Source of the DNA: an uncultured virus (IMG/VR IMGVR_UViG_3300042505_000848)
Taxonomy: Duplodnaviria > Heunggongvirae > Uroviricota > Caudoviricetes
Virus record (IMG/VR): IMGVR_UViG_3300042505_000848
Direction: 5' to 3' (one strand)
DNA: 56,047 bases
Under the pieces are notes generated by a model that searched no databases, was not told where the DNA came from, and saw only the letters and a list, made by a program, of their open reading frames with translations. Made by a program: the position numbers and the translations under genes. Positions 6,382 through 50,649 of this stretch are shown here, one piece after another. Within the stretch, counting starts at the first letter, position 1, and each line of letters begins with the position of its first letter.

Positions 6382-6600
6382 TTACAATCTATAAGTTACA
6401 CGACCTTTGGTAAGATCATATGGGCTGACTTCAATTTTAACACGATCGCCTAAGATAATTTTTATCTTGTGCTGTTTCAATTTGCCGCTGGTATAGCATA
6501 CAAGTATGTTGGGCAGATTATCCACCTTGACTCTGAACATGTTGCCAGGCAACACTTCTTCAATAGCACCAGTTAATTCGATTAGATCACTTTTTGACAT
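6382..6600 (-). CDS. infA: Translation initiation factor IF-1
   Basis: MSKSDLIE...[10 protein letters not shown]...[34 protein letters not shown]. Confidence 0.97.
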
Positions 6601-7048
6601 TTTTCTTTGATTTTAGTTGAGCGTCTGCCTTGTCTATGATTTGAAAAACCTTGTTGGCTAACACTCGTTCTTTACTAAAGGCTTCCACTTCCCAAGGCAG
6701 ATCATAATAGTGTCCCTTGAATTTTTTCCCCATCCACAGTCTGCTGTTGAGATTCTTTCCGTGTTTGATCTGCCCTCGAGCATACTGTTTGACATGCACC
6801 ATTTCGTGTGCCAGAGCAATGATCAACCTTTCGATATCGAGAGCGGTATCTATGCTCATGCCTATCACAGTCGGCCCCAATTTAAACACACTGCCTCGCA
6901 CCCCTTCTTTGACACTCATTCCTCTATCAGGAATCACTATCAGTGAGTATCGACTATTCTGTAATTTCAGTTCATTTCGAAATACTTGTAGACAGGTTTC
7001 AACCAACATTTTGCTGGCGCTTTTCCTCGCTAACACTTGAATTTCCAT
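6587..7048 (-). CDS. Zn-metallopeptidase-like protein (HEXXH)
   Basis: [10 protein letters not shown] and [10 protein letters not shown]. Confidence 0.75.
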
Positions 7049-7069
7049 AAGAGCTCCTTGTATATATCA

Positions 7070-7098
7070 ATTATACAATCTTATTTGAATGTTGTCAA
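7070..7098 (-). promoter_or_regulatory. Sigma70 early promoter
   Basis: TTGACA-17-TATAAT. Confidence 0.85.
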
Positions 7099-7099
7099 G

Positions 7100-7173
7100 T
7101 GGTGCTCCAACCAAGAATCGAACTTGAAATACATCCTTACCAAGGATGCGTTATGCCATTTAACTATAGGAGC
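7100..7173 (-). tRNA. tRNA-Thr(GGT)
   Basis: Cloverleaf; loop TTGGTAA; encoded CCA. Confidence 0.9.
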
Positions 7174-7738
7174 ATTCTATGTCTGCTGCCAATACAAATC
7201 GATATTGGTTGCTCTGTACAATGCCCGGACGGTGCCATGTGTCACTGGGATATATGATCCAGTGGCCTTGAGTGGGAGTGATGAAATACTTGCCATCTTG
7301 TTCTGCACCGTTGGGTGCTATTTCTGTGCCGCAATAGTCTCGATCCTTGACATCGCTGGGAATGTGCAGATAGTATATTCCGCTGAACATTTTATTATTG
7401 GGATTTTTTGGATGCCAATGATTGTGCCATAGTTTTTCTCGATTTTCGGCACTCTGAAGATTGGTCATAAAACTCCAAGCCATCATCTCTGATACTTTGA
7501 CTTCACGACCTAGATACATGAACACAGAGAACATAAAACTCATTCTGTATTTCAGCCATACGGGTTCTGGTCTGGAAAAAATATTTTCTTTGGTTTGAAA
7601 CTTGGGACTGTTTGTAAAATAATTGCCGTCGGCAATAATGTTCTTGATAATTTTGCAGGCCATAGCGTCATCTTCAGCAGTGATTACACTGCTAAAATTA
7701 AATTTGCGAACAAGCTCTGTTTGATCTACTACCTGCAT
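7160..7738 (-). CDS. Putative 2OG-Fe(II) oxygenase
   Basis: WHNH...SGIYYL...IYPSDTWH...R. Confidence 0.75.
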   Translation of the reverse strand: MQVVDQTELVRKFNFSSVITAEDDAMACKIIKNIIADGNYFTNSPKFQTKENIFSRPEPVWLKYRMSFMFSVFMYLGREVKVSEMMAWSFMTNLQSAENREKLWHNHWHPKNPNNKMFSGIYYLHIPSDVKDRDYCGTEIAPNGAEQDGKYFITPTQGHWIIYPSDTWHRPGIVQSNQYRFVLAADIECSYS

Positions 7739-7746
7739 GGTATCCT

Positions 7747-7820
7747 TGGAGCGGGATGAGAGAATCGAACTCTCGACCGAAGATTGGAAATCTGCTGTTT
7801 TGCCATTAAACTAATCCCGC
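7747..7820 (-). tRNA. tRNA-Gly(TCC)
   Basis: Loop TTTCCAA; GCGGGA 5' end; CCA. Confidence 0.92.
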
Positions 7821-7845
7821 ATTGTCTTTACTTATCAACTAACTT

Positions 7846-7922
7846 TGGTCGGAGTACAAGGATTCGAACCTTGGACCCCCTGGTCCCAAACCAGGTGCGC
7901 TACCAGACTGCGCCACACTCCG
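7846..7922 (-). tRNA. tRNA-Pro(TGG)
   Basis: Loop TTTGGGA; CGG 5' end; CCA. Confidence 0.92.
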
Positions 7923-7925
7923 AAT

Positions 7926-8153
7926 TTATTCTACTTTTTTAAGATATTCTCGACCTATCTTGCCTTCTTGGACATCTAATAGAGCACTCACCGGAGAGTT
8001 GATTTGAGTAGTCAGCCCTGCTGTTTTGTGTCTACGAGACAATTCTCTGGCTCTTACTGTAGCGATTAGCACAAGATCAAATCTGTTGCCTCCCGCTTGT
8101 TCTACACATTGTTGTGTATCTACGGTAGGTCCACGACTATCAGATAATTTCAT
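7926..8153 (-). CDS. rpoZ: RNA polymerase omega subunit homolog
   Basis: GNRFDLVLIATVRAREL...PVSALLDVQEGKI. Confidence 0.88.
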   Translation of the reverse strand: MKLSDSRGPTVDTQQCVEQAGGNRFDLVLIATVRARELSRRHKTAGLTTQINSPVSALLDVQEGKIGREYLKKVE

Positions 8154-8173
8154 TTTTTGCCTTTGTAAAAAAA

Positions 8174-8247
8174 TGGTTGCGGGACCTGGAATCGAACCAG
8201 GATCTAGAGCTTATGAGACTCTTGAGTTACCGTTTCTCTATCCCGCG
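8174..8247 (-). tRNA. tRNA-fMet(CAT), initiator-type
   Basis: C1:A72 mismatch, A11-U24, loop CTCATAA; lacks the three consecutive G-C pairs in the anticodon stem. Confidence 0.85.
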
Positions 8248-8251
8248 ATAA

Positions 8252-8388
8252 ACTTTATAGAGGCTCTCTGTTGGAATCGAACCAAACTGTTTAACTCCGT
8301 ATCTTCCTGGCACTTTCGGTGGTTAGTCGACTTAGCACCTAACTCGTGTGATCCAGTGTAGTTAAACTTCAAAGAGCTTTTATAAAGT
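8252..8388 (-). ncRNA. tRNA-like stem-flanked RNA (acceptor-like stem and T-arm, no D arm)
   Basis: GCTCTTTG/CAGAGAGC stem, TTGG-TTCGATT-CCAA arm, GTTTAACT/AGTTAAAC helix, outer ACTTTATA/TATAAAGT. Confidence 0.6.
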
Positions 8389-8592
8389 GTCTAGCTACCT
8401 ACACCACATAGGCCCTAGACTGAGCTGTTACTCTGTCCACTAATTTTTTCATCTGGACGGGTTTCGTTCCCGCCCCTAGGTAGTTTTCAGTATCCCCCAA
8501 CAGGGGCTGTAAGGTCAGGTCCTAGTGTACCCCCTGGTCTATCGTTACAGGGACGGATTGTTTACTAACGGAAACAATCAAACCGGGGTCTG
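8389..8592 (-). ncRNA. Candidate structured ncRNA
   Basis: GC-rich and non-coding; hairpins GGGCGGG/CCCGTCC, GTCTAG/CTAGAC, GATTGTTT/AAACAATC. Confidence 0.5.
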
Positions 8593-9168
8593 TTAGATCA
8601 AGCCTTCTGCCTGTAGTGTTGCTACTACATCGTCTGCCAGAGGAATCTCTGTGCGGATGTTCAACTCAAGCACTTCATCGTTGAGCTGTTGTTTTTGCTT
8701 CTTTAGGTTAAGCACTTCTGCTTTGGCCTGTGCAATTTGTTCTTTGCTGAGAACGCTGGTGCTCACAGTATCACTATAGCCGTAAAGACTGCGACGAGTG
8801 TTTTCGCCCTTGTCGTTCTTGATCTTTTCCAGCTTGCCTTTAATCACTTCCAAAGAAGTAATCTCTGTGGCTTTAGCCAGTTCTTCTAGCTGACCGATGC
8901 GCTTGTCAATGAACGCTGCCTTGGCTAATGCTGTGTTAATACCACTGGCTGCGTTGGCTGTTCCAATCAATGCACGGATGTTGTACATAGCCATGGTTAA
9001 CTTTTGTCTGCGACCATCGTTGGTAACCAATTCAGAATTGGCCTTGGTGATAGCAGCTTCTACGTCTTGAAACTCATTGAGTTCAATAGTGAAATCTACT
9101 TTGATACTTTTGATGGTATCATTGATGCTGTTCTGCACAGCATTTGCTTTTCTCAGTGTGATATTCAT
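8593..9168 (-). CDS. Coiled-coil protein (tentatively DIP1984/DUF6847-like)
   Basis: Start MNITLRKANA after AAGGAAG; all-helical heptads; C-terminal LNDEVLELNIRTEI. Confidence 0.7.
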   Translation of the reverse strand: MNITLRKANAVQNSINDTIKSIKVDFTIELNEFQDVEAAITKANSELVTNDGRRQKLTMAMYNIRALIGTANAASGINTALAKAAFIDKRIGQLEELAKATEITSLEVIKGKLEKIKNDKGENTRRSLYGYSDTVSTSVLSKEQIAQAKAEVLNLKKQKQQLNDEVLELNIRTEIPLADDVVATLQAEGLI

Positions 9169-9459
9169 TTTTCTTCCTTTTTCAAACAACAATGACGGGT
9201 CCATGAAAGGTCAAGTAATAGACCGGACAATAGACAATGAAGATTTGTATTCTTCGTTGACAATGTGCAATATACAATACACAGAGGTCTATATATTTCC
9301 GATTAACAAATGACATTCTATTAGGAATCGGATCACATAAACACGTTCCAATTTCAAGTTGGATTGTAAGTTTGGAGTAAGCATGAAGCTCACGCCTTTG
9401 TGTCTATTCTCGTCTACCCTTCACTTCACCGGTTGAAACATTTCTGTTCCAACAAAACT

Positions 9460-9488
9460 ATTATAACATTCTTTTAAGTGTGTGTCAA
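9460..9488 (-). promoter_or_regulatory. Sigma70 promoter giving a ~285-nt leader
   Basis: TTGACA-17-(TGT)TATAAT. Confidence 0.85.
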
Positions 9489-9495
9489 CATGTTT

Positions 9496-9569
9496 TGGTG
9501 CCCCTTGACAGAATCGAACTGCCAATTGATGATTACAAATCAACTGTTATACCATTTAACTAAAAGGGC
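9496..9569 (-). tRNA. tRNA-Thr(TGT)
   Basis: Loop TTTGTAA; CCA. Confidence 0.9.
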
Positions 9570-9585
9570 CTACTACTACTTATCT

Positions 9586-9660
9586 TGGTGGAGGATGGGA
9601 GGATCGAACTCCCGACTGAAGCTTGCAAAGCTACCGTGTTCCCAGCTATACCAATCCCCC
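9586..9660 (-). tRNA. tRNA-Ala(TGC)
   Basis: G3:U70; loop TTTGCAA. Confidence 0.93.
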
Positions 9661-9662
9661 GA

Positions 9663-9878
9663 TTAATCCCTAGTTGATGCTGTGCCAGTGGGATTCTTAG
9701 TGTATCCACCTGGACCAGCAGGTCTCTTTTCTCTCTTGGGCTGAACAGCTGCACATAGCTCAGCATCGATCATTGCACGTTTCCATGCACCTCGCTTGTG
9801 CGGATCTAAAACTCCACTCAGTGCTAGACTTGCTTTAGTCATTGAACTCATTCTATAATTTGGACCTGGTTTCATCAT
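9663..9878 (-). CDS. Small basic hypothetical protein
   Basis: AAGGA RBS; 71 aa, K/R-rich. Confidence 0.65.
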   Translation of the reverse strand: MMKPGPNYRMSSMTKASLALSGVLDPHKRGAWKRAMIDAELCAAVQPKREKRPAGPGGYTKNPTGTASTRD

Positions 9879-9896
9879 TTTTCCTTTTTTAAAATC

Positions 9897-10100
9897 TGGT
9901 TGCTCTGCATCCCCCGGCGGTAATTATATCGCATCAGGCACCGGGAACCCCCAATACCATCACACACGACCTCCACCCGCTCCCCGACAGGGACCGTTCT
10001 CGCATTGCTAGCGGCCTTTCGGTTCGAAGACTACCACCCGTAGCTGTCACGCTACTTCTCATCGTGTGGGTCACACTATCCGGAGACACCCGGAACGTTC
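9897..10100 (-). ncRNA. Candidate ~200-nt structured ncRNA abutting the tRNA-Ser CCA
   Basis: GC-rich; helices TCCGG/CCGGA, CACACGA/TCGTGTG, GTAGC/GCTAC, CC-GAAA-GG, GGTATTGGG/CCCGGTGCC; ends ...GCAACCA. Confidence 0.6.
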
Positions 10101-10188
10101 TGGCGGAGCATGTAGGAATCGAACCTACTCACCCATTGCTGAATGACAGATTAGCAATCTGTTGCCTTAACCGGTCGGCCAATGCTCC
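10101..10188 (-). tRNA. tRNA-Ser(GCT)
   Basis: Loop TTGCTAA; long V arm; G73. Confidence 0.92.
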
Positions 10189-10196
10189 GTATTACT

Positions 10197-10272
10197 TGGT
10201 GGGTCGTGACAGTCTCGAACTGCCGACATTCTGCGTGTAAGGCAGACGCTCTACCAACTGAGCTAACGACCC
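10197..10272 (-). tRNA. tRNA-Val(TAC)
   Basis: Loop CTTACAC. Confidence 0.93.
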
Positions 10273-10274
10273 TG

Positions 10275-10443
10275 ACCATTAAAAAATAACATTACACCTT
10301 ATAGGATGAGACAAATTTCTGAGTGGAGTTCGATTCTCCTCATAAGCCATTGTCCACGGTTATGTCAGAGGAGTAAGATGGCCCTATTCCTCATGAGATT
10401 GTGCGTCCACAAACGATACCCGCTAATGCTATTTTTTAATGGT
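10275..10443 (-). ncRNA. Stem-enclosed small RNA, antisense to the 5' leader at 41241-41357
   Basis: 20-bp terminal stem (10275-10294 with 10424-10443); 10393-10409 is the exact reverse complement of 41251-41267. Confidence 0.7.
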
Positions 10444-10522
10444 GCCCTAGGACGGACTCGAACCGTCACGCTTGCGCACTGGCTTCTAAGACCAGCGTGT
10501 CTACCAATTCCACCACCAGGGC
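10440..10522 (-). tRNA. tRNA-Leu(TAG)
   Basis: Loop CTTAGAA; V arm. Confidence 0.92.
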
Positions 10523-10577
10523 AAAAAATTTACATTTAATTTTTAATGAACGTTTAACTAATTTCTCAGTATGTTAT

Positions 10578-10606
10578 ATTGTAACATCGTTGTTGCATAC
10601 TGTCAA
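10578..10606 (-). promoter_or_regulatory. Internal sigma70 promoter in the tRNA array
   Basis: TTGACA-17-TACAAT. Confidence 0.75.
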
Positions 10607-10614
10607 CCTTTATC

Positions 10615-10689
10615 TGGCACCGCCTACAGGAATCGAACCCATATTCAAGAGGTAGAAGCTCTTTGTATTATCCATTATACTAAAGCGGT
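10615..10689 (-). tRNA. tRNA-Arg(TCT)
   Basis: Loop CTTCTAC. Confidence 0.88.
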
Positions 10690-10690
10690 A

Positions 10691-10774
10691 TGGTGCGAGA
10701 AACGGGACTCGAACCCGTATGCCTTGCGGCGGCAGATTTTAAGTCTGCTGTGTATACCATTCCACCACTCTCGC
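10691..10774 (-). tRNA. tRNA-Leu(TAA)
   Basis: Loop CTTAAAA; V arm. Confidence 0.92.
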
Positions 10775-10782
10775 ATTTATAT

Positions 10783-10858
10783 TGGTGCTACCTCTAGGAA
10801 TCGAACCTAGTTCAACGGTTCTTCAGACCGCCGCTATGACCACATCAGCTAAAGTAGC
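10783..10858 (-). tRNA. tRNA-Phe(GAA)
   Basis: Loop CTGAAGA. Confidence 0.92.
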
Positions 10859-10860
10859 AT

Positions 10861-10952
10861 TGGTGCCTCCGCCGGGAGTCGAACCCAGATGAACCAATTA
10901 TCTGTTGCTTACGGGATATAAATCCGCCGTTTTACCATTAAACTACAGAGGC
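10861..10952 (-). tRNA. tRNA with TAT anticodon (nominally Ile) and an atypical long variable arm
   Basis: 92 nt; loop TTTATAT; ~22-nt V region; intact acceptor stem, T arm and CCA. Confidence 0.75.
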
Positions 10953-11002
10953 AAAAGAAAAACTTTACAGCATCAACTATGTTAAACGAGTAAAGCCATG
11001 TT

Positions 11003-11076
11003 TGGGGTGAAAGCGGGAATCGAACCCTGCCTTACTGTTTCACAGACAGCCGTGCAGCCATTACACTACTAACACC
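11003..11076 (-). tRNA. tRNA-His(GTG)
   Basis: Loop CTGTGAA; G-1:C73. Confidence 0.9.
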
Positions 11077-11082
11077 ATTGTT

Positions 11083-11157
11083 TGGCCGGTCCGGAGAGAT
11101 TCGAACTCCCGACAGCTGGTTTCGAAGACCAGAACTCTTCCACTGAGCTACGGACCG
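11083..11157 (-). tRNA. tRNA-Arg(TCG)
   Basis: Loop CTTCGAA. Confidence 0.9.
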
Positions 11158-11163
11158 ATTGAT

Positions 11164-11237
11164 TGGCAGAGGGTAAAGGAATCGAACCTTTAATGACGGA
11201 ATCAAAATCCGTAGTTATACCATTTAACTAACCCCCA
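11164..11237 (-). tRNA. tRNA-Gln(TTG)
   Basis: Loop TTTTGAT; G73. Confidence 0.9.
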
Positions 11238-11243
11238 ACAATT

Positions 11244-11319
11244 TGGTGGTAATAGTTGGACTCGAACCAACGATAGGCTGCGTATGAAGCAACTGCATTA
11301 GCCACTATGCTATATTACC
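11244..11319 (-). tRNA. tRNA(CAT), elongator Met (or Ile2)
   Basis: Loop TTCATAC; G1-C72 paired. Confidence 0.85.
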
Positions 11320-11413
11320 ATATAGAAACACACTTGGAACTTTCTCATTGAACGGATGGTGTTCTGTCCTTACTATCTAGACTACGTCTAGAATCAAGTA
11401 TGTTTTTATATGG
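11318..11413 (-). ncRNA. Stem-enclosed inter-tRNA RNA cassette
   Basis: CCATATAAAAACATACTTG/CAAGTGTGTTTCTATATGG stem enclosing TCTAGAC/GTCTAGA and GAAC/GTTC hairpins. Confidence 0.5.
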
Positions 11414-11484
11414 TAGGGGCACAGAGAATCGAACTCTGATTTACTGGTTAAAAGCCAGTTACTTTACCATTAAGTTATACCCCC
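11411..11484 (-). tRNA. tRNA-Lys(TTT)
   Basis: Loop CTTTTAA. Confidence 0.9.
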
Positions 11485-11611
11485 AACTGTTTATGACATT
11501 TGTCACTGTCCATAACAGGATCTCCTATTTTAAATTTTTGTCGATAAAATATATCAATACTACCAGCATGAGTAAAACTGCAACCGCCCCATTTTGTTTT
11601 CTCCTTATAAG

Positions 11612-11685
11612 TGGTGCCCAGAACAAGAATCGAACTTGTAATAATCGCTTATCAAGCGACCGTTATACCATTTAACTATCCGGGC
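11612..11685 (-). tRNA. tRNA-Ile(GAT)
   Basis: Loop TTGATAA. Confidence 0.88.
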
Positions 11686-11689
11686 AATT

Positions 11690-11779
11690 TGGCGGAAGTA
11701 GTAGGATTCGAACCCACGGCCCCTTTCGGAACTTCAGTTTTCAAGACTGCTGCCTTAAACCATGCTCAGCCATACTTCC
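11690..11779 (-). tRNA. tRNA-Ser(TGA)
   Basis: Loop CTTGAAA; V arm. Confidence 0.92.
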
Positions 11780-11784
11780 ATAAT

Positions 11785-11865
11785 TGGTACCCCGGGCGGG
11801 AGTTGAACCCGCATTTAAATTTCTCTTTTTGAGAGAGACGACTTTGCCAATTTGTCTACCGGGGC
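11785..11865 (-). tRNA. tRNA-Leu(CAA)
   Basis: Loop CTCAAAA. Confidence 0.88.
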
Positions 11866-11871
11866 GTTGTT

Positions 11872-11948
11872 TGGAATAGCGGGTGGGATTCGAACCCACG
11901 AACAACAGTTTTGCAGACTGCGCCATTAGGCCTCTCTGGCACCGCTAT
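11872..11948 (-). tRNA. tRNA-Cys(GCA)
   Basis: Loop CTGCAAA; U73. Confidence 0.88.
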
Positions 11949-11964
11949 ATAGAATAAATATCGA

Positions 11965-12909
11965 ATGCTTATAAAATTACAATTTTCTCACGACAGTTGC
12001 TTGACTATCAAATTGTTTGATAATTCTGCAGCTCGCAAGTGGTTTTCTTTTTATTCACTTAAAAATAACAATAAATCAGTTCCAATAAATTTCAATGATA
12101 ATTATAATCACATAAACTATTTTAAGAAACGTAAAAATCGATATGAAAACCAGATTGCTGAAGAATGGGAAAAAATACATCGGAGTCTTAACAATCTCAA
12201 AGATCTGGGATACATTTCAAATATAGAATTGCCAGCGATGTTTGATTATCAACAAAGTCGACTTAATCTACTGCACAGATTTTTTACCACAAATGCTATA
12301 TGGGATCATAAATTCAATGATAAACGTATTCATAAGCCAAATCCCATTGACAGTAATTTTTACACTACGGTAGAAAATCGTCAACATTTTAAAAACTGCA
12401 TTGAACAGATCAATGCATCAGTGCATTTTCTCGAAAGTTTTACAGACCCGGAGAACAGAAAAATATTAGATACTCTGCCGTTGAATTCTATAATTATTAT
12501 ATCACAGAATAATATAGCTAATCACGACACCTGGTGCCAATTTTCTCATGATGAACAACAAGAAAATTACAAATATCTGCAATATCTTGAATGCAATCAA
12601 CCATTGGTATTATTAGATAACTCTATCACTGGTAAAAGCTATCTACAAAATTTTCTAGAGAACGATGATCCTACCAACGAAGACTGCACAGGACGAGAAG
12701 GTTCGCACGGTAATCTCATTATTGATACCAACGATAATAGACAAAAAATATATTCCAGCGACAAGTTCCAAGCCTGGGCAGATCACTACGGGTTAAAAAA
12801 CATACCATATGAATTTGCTATCGGTTCTGTTATAGACTGTGACTACAGTGAAATGCACAAATTTCAGAACTGTTCTCAAACTAGACTAACATATCATTCA
12901 ACACTCTAA
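11965..12909 (+). CDS. Hypothetical protein inserted antisense within the tRNA array
   Basis: 314-aa AT-rich ORF; TAAATA 4 nt before the ATG; LNLLHRFF and INASVHFLE His motifs. Confidence 0.8.
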   Translation: MLIKLQFSHDSCLTIKLFDNSAARKWFSFYSLKNNNKSVPINFNDNYNHINYFKKRKNRYENQIAEEWEKIHRSLNNLKDLGYISNIELPAMFDYQQSRLNLLHRFFTTNAIWDHKFNDKRIHKPNPIDSNFYTTVENRQHFKNCIEQINASVHFLESFTDPENRKILDTLPLNSIIIISQNNIANHDTWCQFSHDEQQENYKYLQYLECNQPLVLLDNSITGKSYLQNFLENDDPTNEDCTGREGSHGNLIIDTNDNRQKIYSSDKFQAWADHYGLKNIPYEFAIGSVIDCDYSEMHKFQNCSQTRLTYHSTL

Positions 12910-12912
12910 TAC

Positions 12913-12986
12913 TGGAGCGGGATAGGAGAATCGAACTCCTAACTAAACCTTGGCAAGGTTTCGTTTGACCATTAAACTAATCCCGC
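12913..12986 (-). tRNA. tRNA-Gly(GCC)
   Basis: Loop TTGCCAA. Confidence 0.92.
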
Positions 12987-12991
12987 ATATA

Positions 12992-13066
12992 TGGAAGACC
13001 GTAGGGGAGTCGAACCCCTCTTACCAGGATGAAAACCTAGTGTCCTAACCGATAGACGAACGGTCC
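12992..13066 (-). tRNA. tRNA-Glu(TTC)
   Basis: Loop TTTTCAT. Confidence 0.9.
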
Positions 13067-13074
13067 ATAAAACT

Positions 13075-13148
13075 TGGCGTACCTCCAGGGACTCGAACCC
13101 CGACGAACAGTTTTGGAGACTGTGATGCTGCCATTACATTAGAGATAC
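13075..13148 (-). tRNA. tRNA-Trp(CCA)
   Basis: Loop CTCCAAA. Confidence 0.9.
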
Positions 13149-13153
13149 ATTAT

Positions 13154-13232
13154 TGGCTCCGAGTAAGAGGATCGAACTCTTCTAACCAGTGATTAACAGT
13201 CACGCCCATGCACCTTGCTCGGGTTTCTCGGA
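13154..13232 (-). tRNA. tRNA-Asn(GTT)
   Basis: Loop CTGTTAA; TCC 5' end. Confidence 0.9.
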
Positions 13233-13239
13233 ATAAAAT

Positions 13240-13314
13240 TGGCGGTCTGTGGGGGAATCGAACCCCCGTAAGCGGATAGACAATCCGCAGTAATAACCTC
13301 TATACGAACAGACC
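13240..13314 (-). tRNA. tRNA-Asp(GTC)
   Basis: Loop TTGTCTA. Confidence 0.9.
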
Positions 13315-13319
13315 AAATT

Positions 13320-13403
13320 TGGTGGAGACGGCTGGAGTCGAACCAACAGTGCCGAAGCGGCGGATTTACAGTCCACTGGGGATACCAATTTTCCTACATC
13401 TCC
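13320..13403 (-). tRNA. tRNA-Tyr(GTA)
   Basis: Loop CTGTAAA; V arm. Confidence 0.92.
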
Positions 13404-13404
13404 A

Positions 13405-13585
13405 AAACACACTCTTGCGAATGTGTGTATTAAAGAGCACAGTCTGCGACATCTCAGTCCAGGCCAGTTCTATGCTCTTTAATACGAACTAATTTTTCCT
13501 CCCACACAAGGGATTCCATCCTAGTCGCCGCCCGTTCGTCCATGTTTAAAGTGCAGACTGGGACCTCGTTTCCCTTAACACTTTT
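13405..13585 (-). ncRNA. Candidate structured RNA at the head of the tRNA array
   Basis: 13-bp GTATTAAAGAGCA/TGCTCTTTAATAC stem whose loop GCAGACTG complements upstream CAGTCTGC. Confidence 0.45.
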
Positions 13586-13589
13586 GCTA

Positions 13590-13763
13590 TTAGTTTACAC
13601 TATACATTGGCGCTTGAGCCAATGCTTCGCGATAAATCCTAGCTCTTTCAAACTTATCTTGAATAAGTTTCTGAAGCTGCTCTTGAGTCATTTCTCCAAA
13701 AGCAGTTTCATAAGCCTGTTCAACGATTCGTTCGTTTAATTTTTCGTAATCTATCTGTTCCAT
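13590..13763 (-). CDS. Small helical hypothetical protein, 57 aa (MEQIDYEKLNER...)
   Basis: Translated by hand; AAAGGA RBS directly after the attenuator. Confidence 0.7.
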   Translation of the reverse strand: MEQIDYEKLNERIVEQAYETAFGEMTQEQLQKLIQDKFERARIYREALAQAPMYSVN

Positions 13764-13774
13764 TTTTTCCTTTA

Positions 13775-13810
13775 TAAAAACAAAAACCCCAGGGTGTTTA
13801 ATCCTGGGGT
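13775..13810 (-). terminator. Attenuator terminator
   Basis: ACCCCAGG/CCTGGGGT hairpin followed by TTTTGTTTTT. Confidence 0.9.
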
Positions 13811-13862
13811 CCTTTGAAGTTTAAGTGTATTTTATGTTTACACTAACATCTCCACGGACCCC
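13806..13862 (-). promoter_or_regulatory. Anti-terminator helix, mutually exclusive with the terminator
   Basis: GGGGTCC/GGACCCC closing TGGAG/CTTCA and AGTGTA/TACACT stems. Confidence 0.75.
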
Positions 13863-13981
13863 GGCTCTAGCTCTGGTGTGCGATCATATGATAGACTATT
13901 AATCGATAACCAGCAAGAGGCCATTACGCCTACCTGTTTGGGTATTGAATTAAAATGACTAAAAGATGATCTGAGTTTCAT
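13838..13981 (-). CDS. Leader peptide, 47 aa, containing all 20 amino acids
   Basis: MKLRSSFSHFNSIPKQVGVMASCWLSINSLSYDRTPELEPGSVEMLV; stop codon lies inside the anti-terminator. Confidence 0.7.
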   Translation of the reverse strand: MKLRSSFSHFNSIPKQVGVMASCWLSINSLSYDRTPELEPGSVEMLV

Positions 13982-14037
13982 GTTCTTTCTCTTTGTTCCT
14001 TGATTTACACGACAGCATTTCTGCTGTCTATGTATTA

Positions 14038-14152
14038 ATTATACAGTTATTTAGTCTTGCTGTCAACCTCTATTTGCACATTTGGCAAAATAAATTTTGA
14101 CGCCTTCCTAACCAACTGTATGTATTGTAATGTCTTTTTATTTATATGTCAA
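14038..14152 (-). promoter_or_regulatory. Tandem sigma70 promoters with embedded TAAATA late motifs for the tRNA operon
   Basis: TTGACA-17-TATAAT (14038-14066); TTGACA-17-TACAAT (14124-14152); TAAATA at 14048-14053 and 14139-14144. Confidence 0.8.
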
Positions 14153-14191
14153 TAGAAATATAGCCACTTTATGTGGCTTTTTTGCCACAGT

Positions 14192-14458
14192 TTATTCTGT
14201 GTCAGAGATGCCAGTCTCACTTGAGATCAACAGGTGCTTGCCAATCTCAAACAGGCCTATACTGCCAGGTAGGTCCAAGGCACACACATGTATCTGTGTG
14301 ATACCATCTTCGTCTATGCTGGCTGCTACAAACTCTGCAATCTCTCCACTCTGAACCATCAACCGCATGGCGTCGATGACATCAAGGAGGTCCTGTTTGC
14401 GTTTGGCCTCAGCTTCTAGTTTTCCACCCAATACAACTACTTTGGAATCTGTTTTCAT
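14192..14458 (-). CDS. Hypothetical protein
   Basis: AAGGA RBS; follows the ClpP-like gene. Confidence 0.7.
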   Translation of the reverse strand: MKTDSKVVVLGGKLEAEAKRKQDLLDVIDAMRLMVQSGEIAEFVAASIDEDGITQIHVCALDLPGSIGLFEIGKHLLISSETGISDTE

Positions 14459-14465
14459 ATCGTCC

Positions 14466-15041
14466 TTATTCTAAAATATGATCAGCTATGCCTAGGTCCA
14501 ACACTTCCTGTGCTGTGAGATAGACATCTGATGGTGGCAGTAATTTTTTCTTGATCACCGATGGAGCAAGCCCAGTGGCTTCTTTAAGAATATTGATCAT
14601 CTTATCATTGCAGATATCATTTTCCTTCATGGTGGCTTTCAGATCATGATATTTGTTTTCCATGTTTTCGGAAAATTGGTGACACATGAAACTGGTGTTT
14701 TTGGCAGCATATCTTTGTCCTTGATCTGCGGCAGCAAAAATTAAAAAAGCAGCACTCATCACTGAGCCTATGCCAACACAACGTACAATATGAGGGCTGG
14801 CTCTCATGATATCTATCAGCCCAAAGGCCTGGTAGAGATCACCGCCTGTAGAGTTGATATACAAAGTAAGGATTTTCTCTTTGCTGACATCGAGATTTTC
14901 GCAGATCAGCCACTTTACTGCAGGACCAATACTGTCTTCATCAATTTCGCCGTTGAGGAAATATGTGTTGTTTTCCAACAGTTTGAGATCAATCCGATCC
15001 TCGGCATTAAAATCTTCCAGTTTTCTCACTTTTTGCTCCAT
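14466..15041 (-). CDS. clpP: ClpP-like protease subunit
   Basis: LYINSTGG, VMSAA (catalytic Ser), FMCHQ (His), DVYLTAQEVLDLGIADHI. Confidence 0.85.
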   Translation of the reverse strand: MEQKVRKLEDFNAEDRIDLKLLENNTYFLNGEIDEDSIGPAVKWLICENLDVSKEKILTLYINSTGGDLYQAFGLIDIMRASPHIVRCVGIGSVMSAAFLIFAAADQGQRYAAKNTSFMCHQFSENMENKYHDLKATMKENDICNDKMINILKEATGLAPSVIKKKLLPPSDVYLTAQEVLDLGIADHILE

Positions 15042-15086
15042 GATATACTCTTACTTATGCTTTATAATATTATACTTTAATTACAA

Positions 15087-15470
15087 TCACAAACCAAAGA
15101 ATATCCACCAAATCAGCATGATATAGGTGAGTTGGTGTGCCAATTGATCAGCACCAAACCATACCCAAAAAGCACGATCTTGTGGTGTCAGCTTGGCGTG
15201 AGCATTGATCTTGGTTTTGGCCCAATCTATGTGATAGTGCAGTAGAAAATCAAAAAATGCAGCTACCAGCCCGATGATTGGGTGCAACCATACAAATGCC
15301 AATAGTGTACCAGCACTGTGCCAAAGACTGTGATATATGCCATGCCTGGCACCGTAGATGCCTTTTTCATGAATCATGCGGGGAGTCTGCAAGACAAAGT
15401 CTGCTAGAAAATGTTTGATCTGCAGAACTACAAATACCAGCAGTAGTGTGTCTAGGTCTGAGAGTGCCAT
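15087..15470 (-). CDS. DUF3307-like membrane protein
   Basis: KHFLADFVLQ, HSLWH, HYHIDWAK, DQLAH. Confidence 0.8.
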   Translation of the reverse strand: MALSDLDTLLLVFVVLQIKHFLADFVLQTPRMIHEKGIYGARHGIYHSLWHSAGTLLAFVWLHPIIGLVAAFFDFLLHYHIDWAKTKINAHAKLTPQDRAFWVWFGADQLAHQLTYIMLIWWIFFGL

Positions 15471-15721
15471 TTACCTTCGCTCCAGTGTCTTGAATCGTAG
15501 ATGTTAAAATCCACATTGATTCCAAGCAGTCCTAGACACAGTCGCATACCGCTATGGCTTTGTCTTGTGGTAATATCAACGGCAATATCAACAACGTCTG
15601 CACTGAAGTATACCTGCAGTTCCCAGAACTTGAAAGGCATTGGCAATGATCCGACCCAACATCGAATATTACGAAATCGATTTACTCCAGGTAATCGGAT
15701 ATTGAAATTAAAATTAATCAT
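15452..15721 (-). CDS. Hypothetical protein
   Basis: Overlapping operon ORF. Confidence 0.6.
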   Translation of the reverse strand: MINFNFNIRLPGVNRFRNIRCWVGSLPMPFKFWELQVYFSADVVDIAVDITTRQSHSGMRLCLGLLGINVDFNIYDSRHWSEGKWHSQT

Positions 15722-15903
15722 TCCGGCAATGATCTAAATCTGCTCAAAAAACTTTCCTCGTAACAACTGTATTCACGATTGTTATCTTCGGGTGCATTTT
15801 CTTTGATATAATGAACCCAAGTGTGATCTTCAATTTCGATTACATGAATCACTCGAAATATATGATCCCCGTTACTCACCCATTTAGATCCTTGTTTAAT
15901 CAT
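15718..15903 (-). CDS. Hypothetical protein
   Basis: GGAGAG RBS. Confidence 0.65.
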   Translation of the reverse strand: MIKQGSKWVSNGDHIFRVIHVIEIEDHTWVHYIKENAPEDNNREYSCYEESFLSRFRSLPE

Positions 15904-15911
15904 ACGCTCTC

Positions 15912-16319
15912 CTATTGTTTAAAAACCTCTACGGCTTCATTATCGACATTCTCTACCATATGTAGCATAAATCTGTAGGCATCCCAGGCAGACTTGACTG
16001 AATGATTTTCACTGAGCTCTGTAGGAAACATGTCTACCCACACTGAGTTTTCAGGTTGGCGATGACGATGCAGTCCTTGTCTACGAGGCTGTAGTATTTT
16101 ATTTGTGCTCCACAGTTCTAGAGCCACTGCTTGACACTTGCTCTCGTCAAGACCGTAAAGATAATCGTCATTGCGATGCATGTATTGTTCGATGACGTTG
16201 GCCAACTGCGGTTCATCATGTATAGAAGTGGCAGCAATGATAAATGCCACATCGTCGATGTCAACCGATCCCTTAACAATATCACGGACGCAACGTCCTA
16301 GGCTAAATCCCATTTTCAT
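15912..16319 (-). CDS. Hypothetical protein
   Basis: Operon ORF. Confidence 0.7.
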   Translation of the reverse strand: MKMGFSLGRCVRDIVKGSVDIDDVAFIIAATSIHDEPQLANVIEQYMHRNDDYLYGLDESKCQAVALELWSTNKILQPRRQGLHRHRQPENSVWVDMFPTELSENHSVKSAWDAYRFMLHMVENVDNEAVEVFKQ

Positions 16320-16570
16320 TTTATTTCGTCCGATGTTTCAATAAAGTCGTTGATGATTAGATTGAGAGCTTCAATCCTGCGTATATTACCTGTGACATCT
16401 TCTGGATGCAACCAATAACCATCTGGATTATCTTCTGTCTTGGGATTCTTCTTCCATTCAGCTAATTCTTTTTTCAAATAAGCACGATAGTCTTTGAGAT
16501 TAAGACTGGTAATTCGATCGGCAGTTTCGCCATCAATCCATTGATACTCTTTGTGTTTTTTTTTGCTCAT
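16316..16570 (-). CDS. Hypothetical protein
   Basis: ATGA-coupled ORF. Confidence 0.7.
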   Translation of the reverse strand: MSKKKHKEYQWIDGETADRITSLNLKDYRAYLKKELAEWKKNPKTEDNPDGYWLHPEDVTGNIRRIEALNLIINDFIETSDEIK

Positions 16571-34044: not shown

Positions 34045-35943
34045 TTAGTCTGCCTTCTTCTCTGTGAAGCTGGCGTCGACTACATCATCTGGGCTAGGCT
34101 GGGTAGGCTGTGCTTGTGCCGCCTGTTCCTTGGCCTGCTTTTTCTCTAACAATGTTTTCATTGCCGGGAAAACCTTGTTAAGCTCTTCGGTGATCTTTTC
34201 AGCATCGTCACCTTTAGCTGCTGTTTCAACTGCGGTAATCACTGTTTCAATTTCTGTGACTTCTGCTTCTGTAAGCTCTGCACGGAATTCCTCAAGATCT
34301 TTTTTGACTTCGTGCACCTGTGCTTCTGCTGAATTTCTTGTATCGATCAGCGTACGAGCTTTCTTGTCTGCTTCTGCATTCAACTCTGCGTCTTTGATCA
34401 TGGCTTGAATTTCAGCTTCTGATAGTCCACTGTTAGATTTAATAGTGATCTTGTTTTCTTTGCCTGTGGCCTTGTCTTTGGCTGAGATATGCATGATACC
34501 GTTGGCGTCAATGTCAAAGGTAACTTCAACTTGTGGCTGTCCTCTACGTGCAGGAGCAATACCGTCTAGTTTAAATTCACCTAACAACTTGTTATATTGT
34601 ACAAGCTCACGTTCGCCTTGGAACACCTTGATATCCACTGCTGGTTGATTATCTTCTGCTGTTGAGAATGTCTGCTGTCCTTTAGTCGGAATAGTAGTAT
34701 TCTTTTGGATGATCTTGGTCATTACACCGCCCATGGTCTCAATGCCCAGGCTCAATGGTGTGACATCTAACAACAGCACGTCATTGCGATCGCCACCTAG
34801 CACAGCACCCTGGATAGCAGCACCAACGGCAACTGCTTCATCTGGATTAACGTCTTTGCGTGGTGCTTTGCCAAACAGTTTCTCAACTTCTTCTTGTACC
34901 TTAGGCATGCGTGTCTGGCCACCTACTAAGATGACTTCGTCGATGTCTGAGGCACTCACGCCTGCATCCTTGAGAGCAATACGGCATGGCTCTAATGAAC
35001 GTGTGATTAGTTCGTCAACCAGTTGTTCTAGTTTACTACGTGTGATCTTAACATTCATGTGTTTAGGACCGGTAGCATCTGCTGTGATGTAAGGAAGGTT
35101 GACATCTGTCTGAGCCGAACTTGACAATTCAATCTTGGCTTTTTCAGCAGCGTCTTTCAAACGTTGTAGGGCCAACATGTCTTTGCTTAGATCCACACCT
35201 GCTTCTTTCTTGAACTCATCCACCAGATAGTCCATGATGCGTTGGTCAAAGTCTTCACCACCTAAGAATGTATCTCCGTTGGTGCTTAATACTTCAATCT
35301 GCTTGTCCCCGTCTACATTCGCGATTTCGATGATCGACACATCGAAAGTACCGCCACCAAGGTCGTAAACAGCAATTTTCCTATCAGCTTTGTCATCTTT
35401 ATCAACACCATAAGCAAGAGCTGCCGCAGTAGGCTCATTGATAATACGAAGTACCTCCAAGCCTGCGATCTTTCCAGCATCTTTAGTGGCCTGTCTTTGG
35501 CTGTCGTTAAAATACGCTGGAACTGTGATAACTGCTTGAGTAACTGTTGTACCAAGATAATCCTCCGCTGTCTGTTTCATTTTACGCAGAACTTCTGCTG
35601 AAATCTGTGGAGGTGCTAGTTCTTTGTCTTGTGCCCTAACCCATGCATCGCCATTACTATTTTCATAGATTTCGTAGGGCATGAGGTCGAGGTCTTTTTG
35701 CACAGCCTGTTCTTTGAACTTGCGACCGATCAGTCGTTTGCTGGCATAAATTGTGTTCTTGGGATTTGTTACTGCCTGACGCTTGGCTGAAGCGCCAACA
35801 ATGATTTCGTCTTGTGTATAGGCTACGATTGAGGGCGTAGTTCTAGCACCTTCTGAATTTTCAATAACTTTGGATTTTCCATTCTCGATAACAGCCACGC
35901 ATGAGTTGGTGGTGCCGAGGTCAATACCGATGATCTTAGACAT
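34045..35943 (-). CDS. dnaK: Chaperone DnaK (Hsp70)
   Basis: [21 protein letters not shown] and the other Hsp70 motifs. Confidence 0.98.
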
Positions 35944-50080: not shown

Positions 50081-50445
50081 GCTATTTTTGATTACAAGGT
50101 ATAACTACCTCGGACCGCTGTTTTTTAGGCAGCTAGAGCAAATCTGCTTTCATTAGCAGCACCGCGAACGGTGTTACCAGTGAAGCTCATTGCGCTGAAG
50201 TCAAATGTATTTGCGTTTGCATTTACGTGTTTTGCTTGATTTACAGTCATCGCCTACTGTGTTGCCTTCTCCACTATCTCACCCTGTCGAAACCTTGACT
50301 GGCCCATCAGAAGCATACTTGGAAGATTTATTTACCGCTGACTATTACTCTTCCCCAGCGTCACTTTAGTATGCTTCTGGTGGACCAGGTGGGAGTCGAA
50401 CCCACGTCCAGAATGCCTTCACTTTGAAGGGATTACAACAATTCC
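50080..50445 (-). ncRNA. ssrA: Circularly permuted (two-piece) tmRNA
   Basis: Acceptor piece ...GGTTCGACTCCCACCTGGTCCACCA (ends 50378) precedes coding piece GGGCCAG...TTCGAC (starts 50305); G3:U70; tag ends FALAA-stop. Confidence 0.92.
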
Positions 50446-50649
50446 TTAAGCAGGCTGAATATTGCTGGCCTGCTGGCCTTTCTGCCCCTGAGTCACTTCA
50501 AACCTTACACTTTGTCCTTCTTGTAGGCTCTTGAAGCCACTCGAATTAATCTGTGAAAAGTGAGCAAATAAGTCTGCGCCACCATCGTCCGGAGTAATGA
50601 ATCCAAAACCTTTGGCGTCGTTAAACCATTTTACTTTTCCTGTTACCAT
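50446..50649 (-). CDS. cspA: Cold-shock protein
   Basis: [15 protein letters not shown]...LFAHFS. Confidence 0.96.

Follow-up and report, generated by a model that had tools for sequence, protein, structure and literature searches.

We analysed a stretch of 56,047 nucleotides (nt) from an uncultured virus of the Caudoviricetes (IMG/VR record IMGVR_UViG_3300042505_000848), hereafter the window, and in it a short open reading frame (ORF) of 47 codons that lies on the minus strand ahead of a large array of transfer RNA (tRNA) genes. The ORF uses every one of the twenty amino acids, and its last codons can pair with the beginning of a strong transcription terminator. Our analysis suggests that this leader is probably a ribosome-mediated transcription attenuator that heads the tRNA array of a freshwater jumbo phage and senses slow decoding of any amino acid. 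In the direction of transcription, the locus is laid out as follows.

14162..14178, minus strand: terminator-like hairpin, found by a pattern scan only, closing the upstream operon (an 88-residue ORF and a ClpP-like gene)
14124..14152, minus strand: distal promoter, TTGACA-17-TACAAT, 11 of 12 consensus matches, with TATAAATA within its spacer
14038..14066, minus strand: proximal promoter, TTGACA-17-TATAAT, 12 of 12 consensus matches, with TAAATA within its spacer
14011..14028, minus strand: hairpin in the 5' untranslated region (5'-UTR), just past the predicted transcription start
13838..13981, minus strand: leader ORF, 47 codons and a stop codon, every amino acid present by codon 37
13803..13864, minus strand: antiterminator hairpin, outer helix of GGGGTCC (13862-13856, codons 40-42) with GGACCCC (13812-13806)
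13843-13825, minus strand: apical hairpin of the antiterminator, in which the stop codon lies (the antiterminator has a middle helix as well)
13776..13811, minus strand: intrinsic terminator, a 9-bp GC-rich stem (13811-13803 with 13793-13785) and a 9-nt loop
13590..13763, minus strand: conserved ORF of 57 amino acids, first of the genes behind the switch, with a good ribosome-binding site (AAAGGA)
12913..13403, minus strand: first tRNA block (Tyr, Asp, Asn-like, Trp, Glu, Gly), tRNA-Tyr starting at 13403

The preliminary description of this DNA, made from its letters alone, had pointed to a 47-codon ORF on the minus strand (13981-13838) that holds all twenty amino acids by codon 37, the codons AGA, ATA, CTA and TTA included, and that lies downstream of consensus sigma-70 and TAAATA promoters. 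We find this ORF with the peptide as quoted; its amino acid set is completed at codon 37, a Glu codon (GAG, 13873-13871), all four of the named codons occur in it, and the promoters match the consensus at 12 and 11 of 12 positions, with TAAATA in both spacers. Also present is the pairing of GGGGTCC with GGACCCC that had been described as competing with a strong terminator: the terminator hairpin, whose T-tract lies at 13786-13776, folds at -15.9 kcal/mol, and the antiterminator, which has the terminator's 5' arm in common with it, folds at -26.6 kcal/mol with a z-score of -4.88, none of 200 shuffled sequences folding as well. By itself the complete set in this one ORF is not significant, since a single 47-residue peptide of this phage's composition would contain all twenty amino acids with a probability of about 0.025 (about 0.02-0.03), the figure for real 47-residue windows of the phage's proteins is 0.019, and 3 of the 177 ATG-initiated ORFs of 30-60 codons in the window hold the full set. 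It is the comparative data that make the observation significant.

Searching with the 57-residue protein yielded 45 loci in uncultured viral contigs, some of them of 260-356 kb, to which a profile search added 8. The first 45 loci and the window give 46 sequences with 38 distinct upstream regions, and the 8 later loci (L047-L054) contribute one further lineage, with a peptide of 53 codons, bringing the number of distinct leaders to 39. These relatives are contigs of uncultured jumbo phages; the nearest record (G001) is identical to the window over the locus, and among cultured phages, searches of the DNA and protein records turned up nothing related to the locus or to the 57-residue protein, and no laboratory model. 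All 38 distinct upstream regions contain an ATG-initiated ORF of 35-51 codons ending 71-92 nt before the 57-residue gene, and the order of promoter, ATG-initiated ORF (35-53 codons), antiterminator and terminator, 57-residue ORF and tRNA genes holds in all 38 and in the L047-L054 lineage. The leader lineages are deeply diverged, forming 17 clusters at 70% identity and 8 at 50%.

The leader frame is open in all 38 relatives and the other two frames in none of them (means of 3.1 and 4.5 stop codons), and the distances from the ATG to a conserved TGG codon and from that codon to the stop are all multiples of three despite changes in length. Every one of the 38 distinct relatives has a TTGAC-type promoter within 200 nt upstream of the leader ATG. 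In seven lineages the -10 element ends 6-10 nt before this ATG, implying a leaderless messenger RNA (mRNA) that would start at or next to the start codon, a placement that fits an RNA made for translation; a similar arrangement is seen by eye in the L047 group. The main group has instead a 5' leader of about 50 nt with a 5' hairpin, an A-rich stretch and weak Shine-Dalgarno-like motifs, and hairpins of differing sequence are seen by eye at the same place in the 5'-UTR of relatives. The pooled ratio of nonsynonymous to synonymous substitution rates (dN/dS) is 0.76 for the leader versus 0.29 for the adjacent 57-residue gene, at similar dS, which suggests that the sequence of the leader peptide drifts almost freely. 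The peptide matches no Pfam or PHROG family, and an Rfam cmscan of positions 6500-16500 at E ≤ 1 returned only tRNAs and two chance-level matches elsewhere, with no leader or T-box family among them.

What has been kept through this drift is the composition. All twenty amino acids occur in 34 of the 38 distinct peptides (35 of 39 with the added lineage), and complete members are found in 14 of the 17 clusters at 70% identity and in 6 of the 8 at 50%. Chance expectations lie far below this. From the composition of the phage proteome the probability of a complete set is 0.002-0.04 at lengths of 35-51, and about 0.002 at 35 codons, the length of the shortest complete leader. When residues are shuffled within alignment columns 2,000 times, which keeps the make-up of each column and breaks compensation within a sequence, a mean of 6.1 and a maximum of 15 peptides are complete, against the 34 of 38 observed. 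When the majority-consensus residues are held fixed and the diverged positions are redrawn from the leaders' own composition, 0.98 of 38 peptides are expected to be complete, with a maximum of 8 in 20,000 redraws. A third control, which like the shuffling and the redraws involves no explicit tree, is that rare residues change place: 37 of 38 peptides have exactly one Cys, spread over 13 alignment columns, and His, Tyr, Phe and Lys occupy 13, 12, 14 and 16 columns. Because residues relocate in this way, and because near-unalignable leaders (L006, L020, L031, L044, L045, L047) are complete as well, our comparisons indicate that the complete set is selected and not merely inherited. The preliminary description had proposed looking in relatives for a conserved short ORF with all amino acids, for a covarying terminator and antiterminator, and for an excess over chance; the ORF recurs in 39 of 39 distinct variants, with the set complete in 35, both helices covary, and the relatives far exceed the null expectations; each of these checks favours the proposal.

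Not every residue wanders. The Trp codon (TGG, 13912-13910 in the window) keeps to one alignment column in all 38 leaders, unlike the rare residues above, and GATCG (Asp-Arg; GAT CGC, 13885-13880 in the window) is kept in most; in L045 and L046 the conserved TGG and GATCG stretches are predicted to pair with each other.

The position of the set along the ORF is also regular, the set being complete before the antiterminator 5' arm is reached in 33 of 38 leaders and the last amino acid to appear being usually a conserved Glu codon 10-12 nt before that arm. The leaders contain no regulatory codon runs: each amino acid is present, the rare ones once. Both codon classes of Arg, Leu, Ile, Gly, Ala and Pro, and not those of Thr and Val, are found in leaders more often than expected, an excess that is uncorrected for relatedness and is a hint only. 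Most leaders have exactly one ATA codon. The incomplete leaders are L009 and L019, which lack Leu and Val, L034, which lacks Phe, and L046, which lacks Lys. The contigs of the first two are too short for comparison with their tRNA genes, and in the two readable cases the missing amino acid is matched by a missing tRNA, with a joint chance of about 0.03 on contigs that are incomplete: that of the Phe-less leader, 46% complete, has no tRNA-Phe and also none for Lys, His, Gln, Val and Pro, and that of the Lys-less leader, 20% complete, carries 24 tRNAs with only Lys and Phe missing. The correspondence is suggestive and no more.

Now consider the RNA. When the nascent transcript of the relatives is folded as far as the terminator 5' arm, a long three-tier hairpin forms in 38 of 38 (-17.5 to -34.6 kcal/mol), with antiterminator z-scores below -2 in every case and a median of -5.0, and the terminator hairpin folded alone is present in all 38 as well (-12.2 to -18.9 kcal/mol). 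The 5' side of the antiterminator consists of the last 8-12 codons of the leader ORF, all 38 hairpins enclose the stop codon, and the 3' base takes in at least 5 nt (5-17) of the terminator 5' arm. In the terminator stem 98.4% of cells are paired and 5 of 9 pairs have changed on both sides, which 0 of 500 shuffles reach. Since two MAFFT alignments (A1, A2) misplace the antiterminator 5' arm in divergent lineages, the outer helix was counted on arms anchored in each sequence's own fold; its pairs 0-5 are standard in 37-38 of 38, a count that such anchoring gives partly by construction, against which slid controls and the occurrence of 23 distinct arm combinations serve as safeguards. Concerted changes include TCC:GGA, TTCC:GGAA and TTTCATA:TATGAAA. 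When the whole nascent leader is folded, the minimum-energy structure retains the outer helix in each of the 38, and RNAalifold gives only a weak consensus on the 5' half. A trp-like protector pairing for the antiterminator 5' arm was found in none of the 38 folds, in which the upstream hairpins do not involve the arm.

Of the structural elements of an attenuator, the comparisons thus predict a conserved ORF, a terminator and a mutually exclusive antiterminator within reach of a ribosome; a regulatory codon run and a protector or pause (1:2) hairpin are missing. How could a ribosome on so short an ORF control the genes behind it? Within the attenuator reading we infer from this arrangement that the ORF is translated, in which direction the switch acts and what its physiological trigger is, and from established ribosome footprint sizes the ribosome-position steps. 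Two strong host-type promoters would drive a short transcript on which a ribosome translates the 47-codon leader, whose last eight or so codons, with the stop codon, make up the 5' half of the antiterminator, the 3' half including the terminator 5' arm. An undelayed ribosome would reach the stop codon and melt the antiterminator while the polymerase is making the terminator, and transcription would end. If a charged tRNA is short and the ribosome is held at any of the first 37 or so codons, the antiterminator would form first, and the polymerase would read into the 57-residue gene and the tRNA genes. A ribosome at the last codons or the stop would unwind the 5' side and the apex of the hairpin, leaving a helix of at most 7 bp that would have to close a loop filled by the ribosome, against the local 9-bp terminator. 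Such an element would report the slowest decoding step, whatever the amino acid, supplying tRNAs on demand and staying off when decoding is fast.

Leader-peptide attenuators are familiar from enterobacteria, where trpL, hisL, pheL, leuL, thrL, the ilv leaders and pheST (pheM) work by this principle. Unlike these, the phage leader has no codon runs and instead holds all amino acids, mostly once, with their completeness conserved; it has no protector (1:2) hairpin, so that the untranslated default would be read-through; its stop codon sits in the apex of the antiterminator; and the switch precedes the 57-residue ORF and tRNA genes, not biosynthetic enzymes. Uncharged or missing tRNA is also sensed by T-box riboswitches and, at stable-RNA promoters, by RelA/(p)ppGpp control. 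Both may be seen as functional analogues that adjust the expression of the translation apparatus, but a T-box lacks an ORF and makes direct contact with a single specific tRNA, and RelA is a trans-acting protein whose targets are promoters. What the phage element shares with the enterobacterial attenuators (for pheL, see PMC3082878) is a promoter, a short leader ORF and a terminator whose 5' arm pairs alternatively with the end of the ORF; here too the position of the ribosome would pick the pairing, an upstream stall favouring read-through. In its logic the element also resembles toiL, the upstream ORF (uORF) of E. coli topAI-yjhQ, one short ORF that according to excerpts of PMC12121999 reports many translation stresses, stalls at different positions remodelling the downstream RNA structure. 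Unlike the phage leader, toiL works there by occlusion of a ribosome-binding site and Rho-dependent termination and responds to antibiotics, and those excerpts report no complete amino acid set and no control of tRNA genes (PMC12121999). Searches of full-text literature, older subscription papers being outside their scope, found no paper that describes a leader covering all amino acids, nor one in which tRNA genes are controlled by attenuation.

The genes behind the switch bear on how much it could control. The 57-residue protein, 54-86% identical among relatives, has no PHROG family and gave a single Pfam match, to GUN4, below the cut-off. Of the 45 loci, 28 were examined for what comes next, and all 28 have tRNA genes downstream on the same strand. 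In the window ARAGORN and Rfam give 27 tRNAs for 19 amino acids; the count of 28 tRNAs for all 20 in the preliminary description has to be corrected, ARAGORN's 28th being a transfer-messenger RNA (tmRNA) at about 50.1-50.5 kb. That description had also placed the leader ahead of a tRNA operon. The tRNA genes are indeed downstream, but the 57-residue ORF intervenes and the array is not one operon, since consensus promoters stand at 10606, 9488 and 7098, inside or after it, those at 10606 and 9488 feeding the last nine tRNAs. An ORF on the opposite strand and a weak terminator-like site further interrupt the array. No consensus promoter is found in the window between the terminator and 12800, so at least the block of Tyr, Asp, Asn-like, Trp, Glu and Gly would depend on the leader promoters. 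Only part of the array lies clearly downstream of the switch, and the unit it would gate begins with the gene for the 57-residue protein.

The array has several peculiarities of its own. The spacer of about 185 nt between the 57-residue ORF and tRNA-Tyr (13404-13589, minus strand) contains GC-rich hairpins, with an ACACAC...GTGTGT stem followed by T's just before tRNA-Tyr, and no Rfam match, perhaps serving as a processing site or as a second weak terminator. Between tRNA-Asp and tRNA-Trp (about 13151-13235, minus strand) lies a sequence resembling tRNA-Asn(GTT), which can be aligned with the relatives' tRNA-Asn genes. Conservation extends over its acceptor, anticodon and T arms, but the D-arm is aberrant, and the tRNA-Asn that relatives carry here is normal. 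ARAGORN missed the sequence and Rfam left it unscored even at E ≤ 10. The tRNA-Ile at 10861-10952 (minus strand), to which ARAGORN gives the anticodon 'tat', is, at 90-95 nt, longer than usual and is conserved in the family, occurring also in L006, L011, L013, L015, L026, L029, L032, L034, L038, L039, L044 and L046. The opposite-strand ORF in the middle of the array (11965-12909, plus strand) encodes 314 amino acids and has no Pfam or PHROG family.

Several observations weigh against a leader that senses slow decoding of any amino acid and gates the tRNA genes. The internal promoters, together with the promoter-like sites that 21 of 48 related loci have within 700 nt downstream, mean that the switch is not the sole route to tRNA expression. 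Four of the 39 leaders miss one or two amino acids, and the leader of G002 has Lys, His, Gln, Val and Pro although no matching tRNA was found on that contig. Most amino acids occur once, where classical attenuators use runs, so a single codon may respond weakly unless the stall is long; and with the last Glu codon only 10-12 nt from the antiterminator, a ribosome stalled there may touch the helix. Since there is no protector and the minimum-energy fold includes the antiterminator in every one of the 38, RNA that is not translated would read through, unlike in trp. The main group has a weak, A-rich ribosome-binding site, and leader conservation shows no codon periodicity and no third-position excess, so that the argument for coding rests on frame retention, the ATG and composition. 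Finally, 24 freshwater or lake RNA runs hold 5-16% of sampled words, and metatranscriptome contigs from 4 runs cover pieces of 13757-13976 and the promoters. Such contigs, which are blind to ends, strand and level and in which DNA may be carried over, show merely that the stretch occurs in RNA libraries and are not used here as evidence.

Could the same attenuator serve another purpose? It might measure general translation capacity, with ribosome availability, elongation-factor or energy status, or host amino-acid starvation as candidate inputs, and time the 57-residue protein, the tRNAs being passengers. A conserved ORF as the first gene behind the terminator would suit such a role, as would the promoter-like sites between this ORF and the tRNAs in 21 of 48 loci, the G002 leader with its amino acids for which that contig yielded no tRNA, and the precedent of a multipurpose stall-sensing uORF that excerpts on toiL provide (PMC12121999). 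Yet a bulk sensor needs no complete amino acid set, whereas selection appears to maintain one; tRNA genes lie downstream in 28 of the 28 loci checked, and the two readable incomplete leaders each go without the matching tRNA. We therefore consider this explanation unlikely, with the proviso that amino-acid starvation and a missing tRNA are alike to a ribosome, so that it partly overlaps with the sensing of slow decoding.

Considerably less probable still is an independent function for the ORF product as a small protein, with the hairpin and terminator there just to end and stabilise its mRNA. The ORF, its ATG and one Trp are kept in 38 of 38 and the Asp-Arg pair in most, and strong promoters would suit an abundant product. 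A folded or binding peptide, on the other hand, would not tolerate a single Cys, His, Tyr, Phe or Lys shifting between close relatives; a dN/dS of 0.76 against 0.29 for the neighbouring gene and the failure to match Pfam or PHROG speak against it too, and a plain 3' hairpin need not overlap the terminator 5' arm with both pairings covarying. Least probable, indeed very doubtful, is a non-coding structured RNA, a small RNA or riboswitch-like leader with the open frame as a by-product, which the strong conserved structure, the want of codon periodicity and an invariant TGG and GATCG that could be RNA motifs might favour, but for which an ATG frame of variable length that is open in 38 of 38 (3.1 and 4.5 stops in the others), ATG, TGG and stop spacings varying only by multiples of three, transcription starting at the ATG in seven lineages, the lack of an Rfam family at E ≤ 1, and an amino acid completeness that is meaningless in untranslated RNA leave little room.

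Turning to the surroundings of the leader, the DNA of the window is that of a phage, with families for baseplate/tail and ribonucleotide reductase present. Since the hairpin at 14162..14178 ends the upstream operon, the leader unit would be a transcription unit of its own. Consensus promoters of the form TTGACA-N16-18-TAHAAT number nine in the window, all on the minus strand, against 0.1 expected, which suggests that this region of the genome has a group of strong promoters for the host polymerase (early promoters). The spacers of both leader promoters contain TAAATA / TATAAATA, as do most of the corresponding spacers in relatives; the motif is absent from the spacers of the window's other seven consensus promoters, and could be an operator or an overlapping late-type promoter; CTAAATAA shows no enrichment in the window. 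Just upstream of the leader unit lies a ClpP-like protease gene (14466-15041, minus strand), and at 34045-35943 (minus strand) there is a gene for a DnaK/Hsp70 homologue about 66% identical to the bacterial DnaK of phage-labelled records; the ClpP-like and DnaK-like neighbours match distant phages only. The tmRNA is a permuted, two-piece one (50125-50503, minus strand; Rfam RF04321 at 135.8 bits, RF01850 beta_tmRNA at 123.8 bits), whose tag ends in ALAA according to ARAGORN. It is present also in L011 (49-447), L012 (902-1318), L014 (1565-1981), L031 (2232-2658) and L043 (630-1061), and in several relatives it sits 1-3 kb upstream of the leader. Together, the tmRNA, some 28 tRNAs, the DnaK homologue and the ClpP-like protease look like a toolkit for translation and its quality control.

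Thus the general sensor of tRNA supply proposed in the preliminary description is supported by our comparisons, as far as sequences can speak to it. Textbook attenuation attends to one or a few amino acids ahead of biosynthetic enzymes; here it is apparently generalised to all twenty, ahead of viral tRNA genes. The signature, in which a complete set is kept while the sequence drifts and single residues hop, is unusual and could serve to find such sensors elsewhere. More tentatively, and with odds that we would put below even, the leader may be a codon-by-codon surveillance of the whole tRNA pool, an inducible counter-defence in which the ribosome itself is the sensor. In that case the loss of any one host tRNA, whether through an anticodon nuclease, another tRNA-targeting defence or host tRNA decay after shut-off, would stall the ribosome and turn on the phage's replacement tRNAs within seconds. 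A link to tRNA-cleaving defence is speculation, made plausible by phage tRNAs known, from excerpts of three reports, to overcome such defences and rescue infection (PMC11464382, PMC11555353, PMC10264068). If the surveillance idea holds, the amino acid content of the leader could be read as a map of the tRNAs that the phage guards. The element bears on why phages carry tRNA arrays and how these are controlled: if tRNA synthesis is switched on by demand, that would account for a phage affording some 28 tRNA genes downstream of very strong promoters.

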